Shown: piece by piece, positions 30,451 to 33,628 of the stretch | Numbering within the stretch: position 1 is the first letter of the stretch | How the letters are laid out: every line of letters starts with the position of its first letter | Position numbers and translations under genes: made by a program | Source of the DNA: Acidimicrobiia bacterium | GTDB lineage: Bacteria; Actinomycetota; Acidimicrobiia; Spongiisociales; ZC4RG35 | Assembly: GCA_965203555.1 (NCBI GenBank) | Contig: CBDBCY010000004.1 | Location: 1,120,001-1,184,000 of the forward strand | Direction of reading: 5' to 3' | Length of the DNA stretch: 64,000 nt | Notes under the pieces: model-generated | What the model was told of the DNA's origin: nothing | Databases searched by the model: none | The model's input: only the letters and a program-made list of their open reading frames with translations

Positions 30451-30591
30451 GGCCCTGCGCGTTTTTTTGGGATTGGTGGTCTGGCTGGTGGGTGGTGGGG
30501 TTCATGTTAGGAGGAGTGCTCGGGCGGCGTAGTTGTGGTGGTTGGTGAAGCCGTGGGCGGTGCGTCGGAGGGTTTGATGCTCCTATGTTTG

Positions 30592-31806
30592 TCAAATTGG
30601 GGTTTGGGGGGTGGTGAGCCAGTGTTGGTATTGGGTGGCGAGTTGGTGGTTGTGGTAGAGGCCTCGTTCGAGTTGTGAGAGGCGGTTTGGGTGGGTTTGG
30701 AGGGCTATGGCGGCGCGAGCCAGAGTTGTTTGGGTTTTTTGGCGTAGGCAGCGTAGATCGCTGCCGTTGGGTGTTTGGTTCGGGTTGGTCAGCAGTCGGT
30801 AGACCTGGCGGGCGATGTAGCGTTTCAGGCAGCGGATGATCTCTTTGCGGGTTTTGCCTTCGGCTTGTCGCCGTTGGGCGTATTCGATGGTGCGGGGGTC
30901 GGTGCGTAGCCGTACTGTGGCTATACGCCAGAGGGCGTTGTTGGCTTGGCGGTCGCCGCCGCGGTTGAGTCGGTGACGCACTATGCGTCCCGACGACGCT
31001 TGGACGGGGCTTGCGCCGCAGAGAGCGGCGAAAGACGCTTCTGTGCGCATGCGGTGGGGGTTGTCCCCGGCGGTGACCAGCAGCGCGGCGGCGGTTTCGG
31101 GGCCGATCCCACCGGCAGCCAGCAGCGCCGGGTTGGCCCGGGCGCAGAGCTGTTTGATTTCGGTGTCGAGTTGTTGGATCTCCCAGGTAAGTGCTTGGTA
31201 TCGGCGGGCCAACAGACGCAACGCTTTCTTGGCATAGGCGATATTGGTCCGGTTCGCGCCGGGACGATAGGCGGCGCAGACCTTCACCCGGGCTTTCGGG
31301 GAAAGGCTCCCGAGTTGGTGTTTGACCTGGTCGGGAGCGGTGACCACCAGAGCGTGCAGCTGGTTGATGGTCTGGGTGCGGGCCTTGGCGGCCGAACGGC
31401 GGACCACCCGAAGCATCCTGATCGCTTCGACTGGTCCGTCGCCGCTTTTGGGTGTCCCGGTGGCCTGTCCGCTCAAAACAGCCCGGGCCGCGGCCTGAGC
31501 GTCGGTGGCGTCGGTCTTGCCGAACCGGCGGCGCAGTTGACGGTTGGGACGGTTCACTTCCACTACCTCGACACCGATTCTCACCAGGTAGCGGGTCAGG
31601 CCGGCGCCGTAGCTGCCGGTGCCCTCTATTCCGACCTGGGCAACGTTGCCGTGTGACCCCAGCCAGTTGCCCAGTTGTTCATAACCGGCTGTGTCGGTTC
31701 CGAACGATGCCGTGCCCAACACCCGACCGGTGGTATCCACCACCGCCGCCACATGAACATCGCGGTGGGTGTCCACCCCACCGAACACATCAACCCGATC
31801 TGACAT
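30592..31806 (-). CDS. IS110-family DEDD recombinase with C-terminal XRE-like HTH
   Basis: GVDTH, GIEGTGSYG and KTDATDA (DEDD); PVQASSG; RLNRGGDRQAN. GAGGAG RBS precedes ATG 31806. Confidence 0.92.
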   Translation of the reverse strand: MSDRVDVFGGVDTHRDVHVAAVVDTTGRVLGTASFGTDTAGYEQLGNWLGSHGNVAQVGIEGTGSYGAGLTRYLVRIGVEVVEVNRPNRQLRRRFGKTDATDAQAAARAVLSGQATGTPKSGDGPVEAIRMLRVVRRSAAKARTQTINQLHALVVTAPDQVKHQLGSLSPKARVKVCAAYRPGANRTNIAYAKKALRLLARRYQALTWEIQQLDTEIKQLCARANPALLAAGGIGPETAAALLVTAGDNPHRMRTEASFAALCGASPVQASSGRIVRHRLNRGGDRQANNALWRIATVRLRTDPRTIEYAQRRQAEGKTRKEIIRCLKRYIARQVYRLLTNPNQTPNGSDLRCLRQKTQTTLARAAIALQTHPNRLSQLERGLYHNHQLATQYQHWLTTPQTPI

Positions 31807-31839
31807 TCGTCTCTTCTCCTCATTTAGAATCGGTTCTGT

Positions 31840-32020
31840 TCTCCCTGACCCGAAAAGGCGGTGGACGGACCACTCAAGTGGCAAGAGCAAGGCTCCTATC
31901 AGGTCACAGCCGCCCTGTCGGGAGAGCGCCGCCCCCAGGCCGGAAGCAGGCCGACAAATCAAACCAAAGGCACAAACAGGCCAGGTTAGGTTGGAGTCAG
32001 ACCCGCCCCGGCCCAGGGGC
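31840..32020 (-). ncRNA. Putative IS110 bridge RNA
   Basis: Left non-coding end folds into two stem/internal-loop domains containing CAACCT and GGTTTGAT (target matches) and ATAGGAGC and TGAGTGG (donor matches). Confidence 0.75.
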
Positions 32021-33628
32021 ACCTATAAGTATGAGTGGATGAGGTTGTTGATGCCTTCCAGGGATCCGTTCGAACGGCGGGCGTGGTGCCAGTTGAGGAT
32101 TTCTTTTGACCAGTTGAGGACGGTGGTGACGGTGTGGTAGTACTCGGGTATGTGTCCGGTTTCGTACAGGGTGACGAACCGTTCGAGGGCATCGAGCGCG
32201 GTGGGGAGGTCTTTGGCCTCATAGAGGCCGTAGAGTTGTTGGAGAGCGCACCGAGGCGACCCGCAGACGCGGGTACGCCTCGAATAGGTGTCGGAGACGT
32301 TTTTTCTCTTCGGGGGTGATATTGGCCTTTCTTTTGAGGAGCAGGTACCGGGCGCGGAACAGATCCGGATGCCAGGCGGGTTTGACGCCGGGCGACTGGC
32401 GGCGTTGCAGATCCCGGCGTACCAGGGTCAGTCCTTCGGTGAACCAGCGGGCGGCGTGGAACCGGTCCAGGACATGACAGGCCGAAGGAAGGTAGCGGAC
32501 GATGGCCGCCTGGTAGGAACGGGAACCGTCGGAGACCACGACCTGTACGTTCTGGCGCCAGCGGGGTCCCTGCTCGATGAAGAACCTGCTCAACGCCTGT
32601 TTGGACCGCCCAGGGAACATGGACAGGATCTCGCCGGTGTCGCCGTTGACAACAACGGTTACATAGCGGTGGCGTTTTCGGATCGATGTTTCGTCGATCA
32701 GCAGCACCCGGCACCTTTGGCGACGGCGCCGGGTTCGGATCAAATGGGACCAGTCGGTGACCAGACCCATGATCAGATGCCAACTGATCTGGTGGCGGCG
32801 GGCCACTGCCCGGATGGGCATGGCCTGGGCGTCCTGGACCAGCCGGCGGGCCAGCCGGCGCGTTATACCACCCACAAACTGGGGATGGGTTTCCATGTGC
32901 CGCCTCTCGCACCGGTCGCACACGTACCGTCGCTGCGTCCACAACAACACCGTCAAACGTCCGCTCACTTCCAGGTCGCGGATTCGCCGCTGGCGGCGGT
33001 CGTGCACCCGCCGGCACGACCGGCCACAATGCGGACACTCCGACAGCTTCTTCACCGAGACCACCTCCACCACCAGCTCCCCGACGGTGTCAACCACCAC
33101 CTTCGTCACCCGCACACCACGCAGGTGCAACCGGACCGGCATAACATCAGCATTCATTGAGGCCTCCTGGATAGGCGATTCGCTTACACCACCTATTCCA
33201 GCGAGGCCTCAACCCCTAACCAAGGACCCCCTCCCTAACCCTGCTCCCCACAAAAACGCGCAGCCTCCTAAAGCGGCGGTCCGCGTGGGTGCTGGAGAAG
33301 GAAAAGGCCCTCCGAGACCAAATCGTCCAAATCTGTTCACTAATGGGGACTGAGTGGACCATCCGGGCGCAGACCAAGATTCGCCAGATGAAATAAGTGG
33401 ATCATTGGCCTGACCATTGTCACCACATTGGTAGCTGTGTCATCCCTCTGCGTCAATACTTCGGACCCCTTAGTGGATTTTGGGGATCGCCGGGGGGTTA
33501 GTCCAATCACCCTATTTCTGTCCAGTCCGAAACAGGGGGGATCTGAGGCCCAAACGACTCGAGAATCCTCATAACGCCTCAGACGGTAGACCCCACGATG
33601 CGCATTCGTGTTAGATTGGTTGGCTTGC

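Follow-up and report, generated by a model that had tools for sequence, protein, structure and literature searches.

A predicted bridge-RNA insertion sequence of the IS110 group in an ISL3 transposase motif, with crossover at a single shared C

How does one insertion sequence come to lie inside the transposase gene of another, and does the inserted element carry its own record of the site? This question is raised by a 64,000-nucleotide stretch of an Acidimicrobiia bacterium genome (GCA_965203555.1, contig CBDBCY010000004.1, positions 1,120,001 to 1,184,000), referred to here as the window, whose minus strand holds an IS110-group element within an ISL3 transposase gene. The element is very probably an insertion sequence that is active, or was until recently, and is moved by recombination under the guidance of a bridge RNA. 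An original prediction, made from the letters of the window, had placed a bispecific bridge RNA in the left non-coding end of the element, and this is borne out by guide and stem covariation across 42 relatives. Elements of this kind are already known, and the present one is a well-behaved new bridge-RNA IS110 with a one-base crossover. Its copy in the window, called copy A, has as its preferred target the LEGINNLI-coding stretch of the multicopy ISL3 transposase gene, which is disrupted by the insertion.

The limits of the element are set by sites that lack it. Read on the minus strand, the element starts with CACTCATACTTATAGG and terminates with ATAGGAGCAT, so that it extends as CACTCAT...GGAGCAT over 32037-30577. 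Where two other ISL3 copies of this genome are uninterrupted, they have the sequence ...CCTCATC-CA-AACCC..., so the IS110 element comprises 1461 bp, from 32037 to 30577, and empty and occupied sites differ by exactly this element. The identical join is present in unoccupied ISL3 copies of two further genomes from the genus, and contigs from all four public sequencing runs contain a joined form that connects 30574 to 32036 and skips exactly 1461 bases, with a two-letter ambiguity. The junction strings first read on the left and right are correct on the minus strand; the limits of 30571-32047 originally given to the element are replaced by 30577-32037 on the strength of the empty ISL3 sites and the 1461-base skip. 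The anatomy is that of the IS110 group: a left end of 231 nt, a right end of 15 nt, no terminal inverted repeats and scarless insertion. The flanking gene encodes an ISL3 transposase (PF01610, PF14690, PF13542) and is interrupted after its LEGINNLI codons, so that the proposed insertion into the conserved EGINN motif holds by reading, by Pfam and by the empty sites.

The recombinase coding sequence (30595-31806, minus strand) matches PF01548 (N-terminal DEDD RuvC-like domain, 9.2e-26) and PF02371 (C-terminal Tnp domain, 1.4e-18), both exceeding the curated cut-offs. Compared with solved structures, the protein matches the transposases of IS621 (8wt6) and ISCro4 best. The positions corresponding to D11, E60, D102, D105 and S241 of IS621 are conserved, and the motifs GVDTH, GIEGTG, KTDATDA and ASSG align with GIDTA, CIEATG, KTDTVDA and ESG of the 8wt6 chain, whose numbering is taken as native plus two from the position of D11. 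Domains and catalytic residues are therefore like those of IS621, at a considerable distance (E value 3.5e-11, in two matched stretches only).

The guides of the predicted bridge RNA link the element to its site. Four segments of the left end had been said to match the target and donor junctions, namely CAACCT (31993-31988), GGTTTGAT (31965-31958), ATAGGAGC (31899-31892) and TGAGTGG (31876-31870), and all four are present at these coordinates. Their role as guides stands, but two pieces have to be separated from them as handshake positions: the AT of GGTTTGAT, whose GGTTTG is the right target guide and whose last two bases pair with the right end of the element itself, and the last G of TGAGTGG. 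The left target guide was likewise correctly placed, but its limits have been redrawn from CAACCT to CAACCTAACC (31993-31984).

Guides were surveyed in 83 sources (80 loci and three elements of the own genome), of which 69 were parsed with fixed anchors. Five parsed sources were dropped because of cut flanks or a missing right end, and the remaining 64 represent 42 distinct guide pairs, the first member of each being used. A fixed register for the left target guide was tried and rejected, because elements differ in the base to which the guide's 3' C is aligned, some having the last base of the flank there and others the shared C. Because the register varies, left guides were scored at the best of five offsets, with the identical rule for permuted pairs, over 10,000 permutations of the flanks. 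Left target guides matched their own left flanks at a mean of 7.38 of 9 positions, against 3.85 +/- 0.19 for permuted flanks (maximum 4.69 in 10,000); seven relatives scored 9, fourteen scored 8, thirteen scored 7, six scored 6 and two scored 4. For the right target guide, which has five variable positions, the mean was 4.26 against a permuted 1.42 +/- 0.17 (maximum 2.17 in 10,000), with scores of 5 in twenty-three relatives, 4 in eleven, 3 in four and 2 in four. Guide/target matches thus exceed chance in a family-wide permutation, and the covariation of loops and targets that had been named as a check of the prediction is found, far above permuted flanks.

The handshake positions behave in the same way. 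In the target-binding loop, AT faces the right-end bases AT in 34 relatives, AC faces GT in four and AA faces TT in two, so that 40 of 42 are Watson-Crick combinations. In the donor-binding loop, the first handshake base forms a Watson-Crick combination with the final base of the flank in 37 of the 42 relatives, and in none of them is it A, which would pair with the donor's own T. According to the available portions of the IS621 reports (PMC11208160; PMC11208158), in each loop the bottom strand is the partner of the 5' guide and the top strand that of the 3' guide; recombination is helped when a handshake guide pairs with the other partner after exchange, and blocked when it pairs with the cognate one. 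Both the strand rule and the handshake logic are alike in the present element.

Donor guides vary little among the relatives, and they follow the ends wherever these vary. The variant ATAGGAGT occurs in both the left donor guide and the right end of two relatives, and further end variants followed by guides include CACGCA/TGCGTG and CAGTTA/TAACTG, among others. Of 16 combinations of right donor guide and left end, 13 are perfectly complementary, a count that is partly circular because the right donor guide had been used in locating the left end. RNAalifold pairs the columns of the right donor guide with those of the left end, with two to six double changes per pair.

The crossover point is a single base. 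The original prediction had proposed an AT/CATC-type core; the empty sites reveal no CATC core and a single shared C, the second CATC being half right end (..GCAT) and half target. The own genome (3.4 Mb) contains three copies of the element, A in the window, B and C, together with the diverged sisters D (87% identity) and E (72%), and the overlap of donor and target is CA in copy A and only C in D and E. The paralogous empty site of D reads AACCTAACC-C-CACCACC, and at least 14 of 22 paralogous sites of E in a DUF222-HNH gene read ATCGTCCA-C-TGGCA; in either sister, the two junctions and the empty site have a single C as their only base in common. One shared C is therefore what the empty sites of three different elements of this genome have in common. 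Across the 42 relatives, the base after the C is A in 36, T in four and G in two of the left ends and A/C/G/T in 17/9/10/6 of the right junctions, and immediately before the C all donors have T and the targets differ. Given this family pattern, the second A in the overlap of copy A is a coincidence. A two-base core CA was rejected on the right junctions of D and E (GCAT-CC and GCAT-CT) and their empty sites (..AACC-C-CACC.. and ..GTCCA-C-TGGCA..). A core TC, considered for the invariant T of the donors, was rejected as a shared core, as the target base at that position varies.

The junctions are also asymmetric. In all 25 elements in which the next base differs between the partners, the donor's base stands at the left junction and the target's at the right, never the reverse. 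If both strands were exchanged in staggered fashion over two bases, replication should yield both arrangements. Judged from these junctions, the asymmetry fits a crossover confined to the C, or a one-strand exchange resolved by replication, which has been proposed, in the parts available, by two recent preprints on other IS110 elements. For IS621, cutting of the top strands is reported to follow a shared CT whose T is near-invariant (PMC11208160; PMC11208158, available portions), whereas the present element crosses over at a single C followed by a free base.

Target choice can be examined in the own genome, which has five target-bearing ISL3 copies, three of them occupied. Copies A and B are identical in all 1460 of 1460 IS110 positions compared, while their hosts are identical in 614 of 695 and 115 of 125 positions (~88%). 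As the IS110 copies are identical and the hosts differ by about 12%, at least two independent insertions must have occurred. Three identical copies of the element all lie in ISL3 and fill three of the five target-bearing copies, and these figures, with A equal to B despite hosts of ~88% identity, support the earlier idea that the element may parasitise another multicopy insertion sequence. The left end was found in 16 of 41 genomes (the own genome and 40 relatives), 15 of the 16 belonging to the own genus.

It is nevertheless worth asking whether ISL3 is only a near-cognate off-target, the true cognate AACCTAACC-C-AAACC being absent from the own genome. No site of the 3.4-Mb genome matches the predicted cognate sequence at 14 or 15 of 15 positions, the left guide has two mismatches to ISL3, and the site of sister D matches the left guide of copy A at 10/10 with a different right side. 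A metagenome scan for the exact target loop also returned two contigs (L084 and L085), identical over the 2100 bases compared and holding one truncated copy, which lies outside ISL3, downstream of a histidine-kinase gene, with a flank matching 9/10 at a one-base shift. However, the top genomic sites, at 13/15, are two empty ISL3 sites and one other, so that ISL3 ties for best, and five of the six best sites are ISL3 when occupied ones are counted. Moreover, a second species of the genus (G008) carries 5' remnants of the element at the identical ISL3 position, where the flank AACCTAATC matches the guide at 8/9, a better fit than own-genome ISL3. A guide need not match perfectly either, since the natural target of IS621 may differ from its guide by one base (ATCAGGCCTAC vs ATCGGGCCTAC; PMC11208160; PMC11208158, available portions). 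An off-target origin of the ISL3 insertions is accordingly considered rather unlikely, and ISL3 is retained as the preferred target.

A second alternative holds that the association with ISL3 arose without targeting, from one ancestral insertion whose composite ISL3::IS110 was then copied or mobilised by an ISL3 transposase acting in trans. The hosts of copies A and C, which are 99.8% identical over 1236 bases at different loci, are open to this account, as they could stem from one event followed by ISL3 transposition. Copy B does not conform to it, its IS110 being identical (1460/1460) in an ISL3 lineage only ~88% identical, and B already does not share private substitutions that would set the occupied ISL3 copies apart from empty ones. 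The tie of the ISL3 site for best genomic match to the guides, and the occurrence of the same element at the same site of a diverged ISL3 in the second species, argue in the same direction, making such a history improbable and favouring guided insertion into ISL3.

The guides are embedded in a conserved RNA structure. The 231-nt left end folds with z = -3.07 relative to shuffles, and the stem GCGGGTCTGAC / GTCGGCCTGC, predicted to surround the target loop, is present in its place on the minus strand. The structural alignment included 39 of the 42 distinct relatives, leaving out L065 and L074 (longer left ends only) and L066 (an insertion), and the structure evaluated on it was folded from the window sequence with the five guide stretches held single-stranded. 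Over these 39 relatives, 80.9% of cells are paired, compared with 72.6 +/- 0.6 for column shuffles and 39-50% for slid partners, the slid controls being somewhat flattering because the structure was drawn from one of the aligned sequences, that of the window. The double changes are unaffected by this: 39 of 51 pairs, in seven helices, changed on both sides, and none of 500 shuffles reached the observed values. Unaided, RNAalifold recovered the inner stem of the target loop, and an unaided "helix" in its output is the complementarity of the first five bases of the element with the right donor guide. Two stem-enclosed internal loops of the IS621 type are thus conserved as RNA structure.

A promoter for this RNA is predicted to be reconstituted across the joined right and left ends. 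Joined-end promoter scores of at least 10/12 occur in 29 of 42 relatives against 4 of 8400 shuffles, and in seven relatives with the -35 hexamer at 9 nt from the end, the -10 hexamer is shifted 4-5 nt deeper into the left end. The integrated copy in the window has no promoter-like site, and a promoter rebuilt across joined ends is described for IS621 in the available portions of its reports (PMC11208160; PMC11208158). A simple scan of the minus strand after the donor loop found no terminator; the run CCGCCTTTT after the closing stem is at most suggestive of one.

The steps of transposition may be pictured as follows. By analogy with IS621, the excised circle would join the right and left ends and bring TTGACA to 17 nt from CATACT, forming a promoter for a non-coding RNA of ~190 nt from the left end, which the recombinase would then bind. 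Covariation shows that the donor-binding loop holds the joined ends and the target-binding loop the target. It also shows the 2-nt handshake guides to be complementary to the respective other DNA, a pairing that would stabilise the strands once exchanged, and the empty sites show that exchange takes place at the single shared C.

Several observations weigh against bridge-RNA-guided movement in this form. The left target guide of copy A has its two mismatches to the ISL3 site, and from relative to relative this guide can shift by one base with respect to the shared C. L004 matches its own flanks at only 4/9 on the left and 2/5 on the right, L079 at 4/9 on the left, and the guides of L024 have no match to its flanks; on the right side, 8 of 42 relatives reach 3/5 or less. 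The shared CT core dinucleotide of IS621 is not found. An Rfam search of 30400-32300 at E values up to 10 gave nothing except a chance match to a 19-nt viral motif. The search of sequencing runs yielded three runs with a near-complete match, which may represent the source sample, and one RNA run with a share of 0.06; the contigs of this RNA run cover ISL3 parts only and leave 31680-32000 empty, which tells nothing on expression because the run comes from another sample. The joints listed for four contig sets include no circle junction connecting the right end to the left, although contigs drop rare forms, so that a missing joint is no evidence of absence.

The weakest alternative, that the matches arose by chance, or are subterminal repeats in the DNA to which the protein binds, and that the 5' region is simply a structured leader of the transposase mRNA, draws on donor-side motifs readable as direct and inverted subterminal repeats (ATAGGAGC twice; CACTCA with TGAGTG) and nearly invariant, hence with little covariation, and on the RNA being a prediction from sequence, but it is very improbable and close to refuted by the 42-element permutation test, since target-side loop segments that change with the flanks cannot be explained by an internal protein-binding repeat, varying donor ends are matched by varying guides, and the stems covary as RNA would.

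Some relatives carry loops that do not belong to their sites. The target loops of L004 (and L096) and of L024 (and L104) are mismatched to their own flanks, and L004 sits at the ISL3-end target typical of the L014 group with a loop of the L028 group, which targets IS110. Mismatches of this type suggest trans guidance by the RNA of a co-resident relative, or recombination between copies. As the donor ends are common to all close relatives, the RNA of one resident element could move the circle of another, and "half-match" insertion is reported for IS621 in the available portions of its literature. Several copies in other genomes, L084 (3439-3625) and L085, identical over the 2100 bases compared, as well as L087 and L105, end about 165-200 bases in, within or just after the donor loop; they retain a left end with a complete target loop and have no recombinase gene, and are candidate solo RNA genes. 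Three relics of related elements lie in the same genome (G000:C4:648419-648629, 1634967-1635063 and 78694-78862), one with an internal deletion and two as 5' fragments, and their left flanks still resemble their own left guides.

Table 1. Features of the IS110-group element, its predicted bridge RNA and its ISL3 host in the window, followed by the genes found at the junctions of relatives
Feature	Position or locus	Strand	Basis or detail
IS110-group insertion sequence, 1461 bp	30577..32037	minus	one shared C counted (C 32037); second C, 30576, counted as target
Host ISL3 element, ~1358 bp minus insert	30450..33268	minus	repeat limits from BLAST against the genome; Pfam; list of open reading frames
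Right end, 15 nt after stop codon, terminus ATAGGAGCAT	30577..30591	minus	read; motif conserved among parsed relatives
Left target in ISL3, CAACCTCATC, within (I)NNLI codons of LEGINNLI	32038..32047	minus	read; empty sites
Shared C and right target, CAAACC; continues ISL3 frame (..QTLRRTAHGF..)	30571..30576	minus	read; empty sites
Recombinase gene, 404 amino acids and stop codon; DEDD RuvC-like and Tnp domains	30592..31806	minus	Pfam, structure match
Left end, 231 nt non-coding, predicted bridge RNA gene: 5' stem region, target-binding loop, donor-binding loop	31807..32037	minus	fold, covariation
Left target guide, CAACCTAACC, same sense as left flank, would pair with bottom strand	31984..31993	minus	8/10 against ISL3 flank CAACCTCATC
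Right target guide, GGTTTG, reverse complement of shared C and AAACC	31960..31965	minus	6/6 in this copy
Target-binding-loop handshake guide, AT	31958..31959	minus	complementary to last two right-end bases (..GCAT)
Left donor guide, ATAGGAGCCT, same sense as right end ATAGGAGCAT	31890..31899	minus	8/8 over ATAGGAGC
Right donor guide, TGAGTG, reverse complement of left end CACTCA including shared C	31871..31876	minus	RNAalifold; complementary combinations
Donor-binding-loop handshake guide, GT	31869..31870	minus	first base pairs with last left-target base (C 32038)
TTGACA, -35 hexamer, overlaps stop codon, 13 nt from right end	30590..30595	minus	perfect in 33/42 relatives
CATACT, -10-like hexamer, starts at left-end base 5	32028..32033	minus	17 nt from TTGACA only if ends are joined in a circle
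ISL3 transposase at junction	A, L014		Pfam
IS110 transposase at junction	L028		Pfam
IS21 IstB at junction	L001		Pfam
IS605 OrfB/TnpB at junction	L002		Pfam
DDE_Tnp_1 transposase at junction	L005		Pfam
rve integrase-core transposase at junction	L033, L039, weakly L073		Pfam
IS240-type transposase at junction	L070		Pfam
DUF222 gene, at least 22 copies, at junction	E		Pfam

The genes at the junctions of relatives extend the pattern seen in ISL3. Pfam was run on the longest open frame at each junction, for 41 of 42 relatives in a first round and for 19 in a second. At least 10 of the 42 junctions lie in mobile-element genes, and four lie in or next to ordinary genes, the remaining relatives having no Pfam match. 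Second-choice flank frames of 19 relatives added two weak rve matches only, and about 24 flanks have no annotation. An enrichment of mobile-element genes among the targets is likely, as far as these domain matches indicate.

Sister E (L082) lies in the HHIVH-coding motif of the DUF222-HNH family, which has at least 22 copies in the 3.4-Mb genome (G000:C4); one copy is occupied by E, whose left guide matches only 6/9. Thirteen loci of a single genome (L014-L021, L025, L031, L048, L049 and L059) hold one element, and their left flanks agree over 40 bases at the stop codon of a transposase of ISL3 type. Of the right flanks, twelve are alike over about nine bases only, and in L059 the right end was not found. 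The target of this type appears to be the very end of another insertion sequence.

The surroundings of copy A are themselves layered. An open frame on the plus strand of the window (29709-30548) has a DDE_Tnp_1 match barely above the cut-off (5.6e-05) and enters the end of the ISL3 element near 30450, and the 250 bases past this right limit recur at eight or more places in the genome. Taken together, the frame and the recurring bases show a three-deep nest, with IS110 inside an ISL3 element that lies inside or abuts an IS4-like element. Apart from the split caused by IS110, the host ISL3 transposase gene has a frame change at about 32250-32275 on the minus strand, upstream of the IS110 element: a 312-amino-acid frame ends at 32219, and the LEGINN part is in a different frame. 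Other ISL3 copies in the sequencing runs have one base fewer at 32249 or 32253. Copy C, outside the window (G000:C4:2912757-2917870), is interrupted about 45 bases short of its right end by an insert of 2292 bp, of which a part of about 1.5 kb recurs at eight or more places on three contigs and also interrupts one of the "empty" ISL3 copies.

Residence of an IS110-family element at a specific target in another insertion sequence has a precedent. IS1383 of Pseudomonas putida H reportedly integrates into the inverted repeats of IS1384, a finding ascribed to Muller, Lauf and Herrmann in 2001. By its title, with which alone the comparison is made, that work concerns a terminal inverted repeat as target, whereas the present element enters a conserved coding motif. 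A DEDD-transposase element residing inside another mobile element is likewise found in the IS1111-group system used for comparison. In the available portion of PMC11187229, the IS1111 group is described as having its non-coding region downstream of the gene and subterminal inverted repeats, and the present element is of the IS110 type. The same source (Siddiquee et al. 2024) describes ISEc21 and the seekRNA of IS110-type elements, a short, programmable RNA that matches both target halves. The upstream non-coding region is alike in ISEc21, and by this description the element belongs to a different lineage and has a shorter RNA.

The closest model is IS621 of Escherichia coli, as far as the available portions of its reports describe it (Durrant et al. 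2024, PMC11208160; Hiraizumi et al. 2024, PMC11208158). In both elements the RNA is encoded in a long left end and has two internal loops, each with a 5' guide in top-strand sense and a complementary 3' guide, after which comes a 2-nt handshake guide for pairing with the respective other DNA; a promoter divided between the right and left ends and a multicopy natural target are also alike. The present target is a transposase coding motif, whereas that of IS621 is a REP element, and the present RNA is matched by no Rfam or other model. The literature consulted, seen in part, contains no statement that IS110 elements target transposase coding motifs; the natural-target supplements of the 2024 papers, which lie outside its scope, may hold such cases.

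For the genome that carries it, the element is ordinary and adds one layer to a nest of insertion sequences that is three deep. For the family, it contributes a distant set of bridge RNAs diversified in nature, comprising 42 guide pairs together with the targets they have in nature; all parts of the IS621 model, handshake guides included, are seen in it again. Two departures bear on mechanism and engineering: the crossover at one shared base and a target choice that favours the conserved coding motifs of other mobile elements. If the one-base rule proves true at the bench, it would open a wider set of addressable sites to such recombinases, and the asymmetry of the junctions offers natural evidence for the argument between one-strand and two-strand exchange. 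A broader and still tentative proposal is that this lineage, held mostly by Acidimicrobiia-labelled genomes, may consist of specialised parasites of other mobile elements. Their loops would have been tuned repeatedly to conserved coding motifs (ISL3, IS3, IS110, IS21 IstB, IS605 TnpB, IS4/IS5-like, IS6-like and the 22-copy DUF222-HNH family), recombining at a single C with free neighbours and showing the junction asymmetry that a one-strand (top-strand) exchange resolved by replication would leave. On this view, the targeted motifs would be ones that occur in many copies, change slowly and can be broken without harm to the host.

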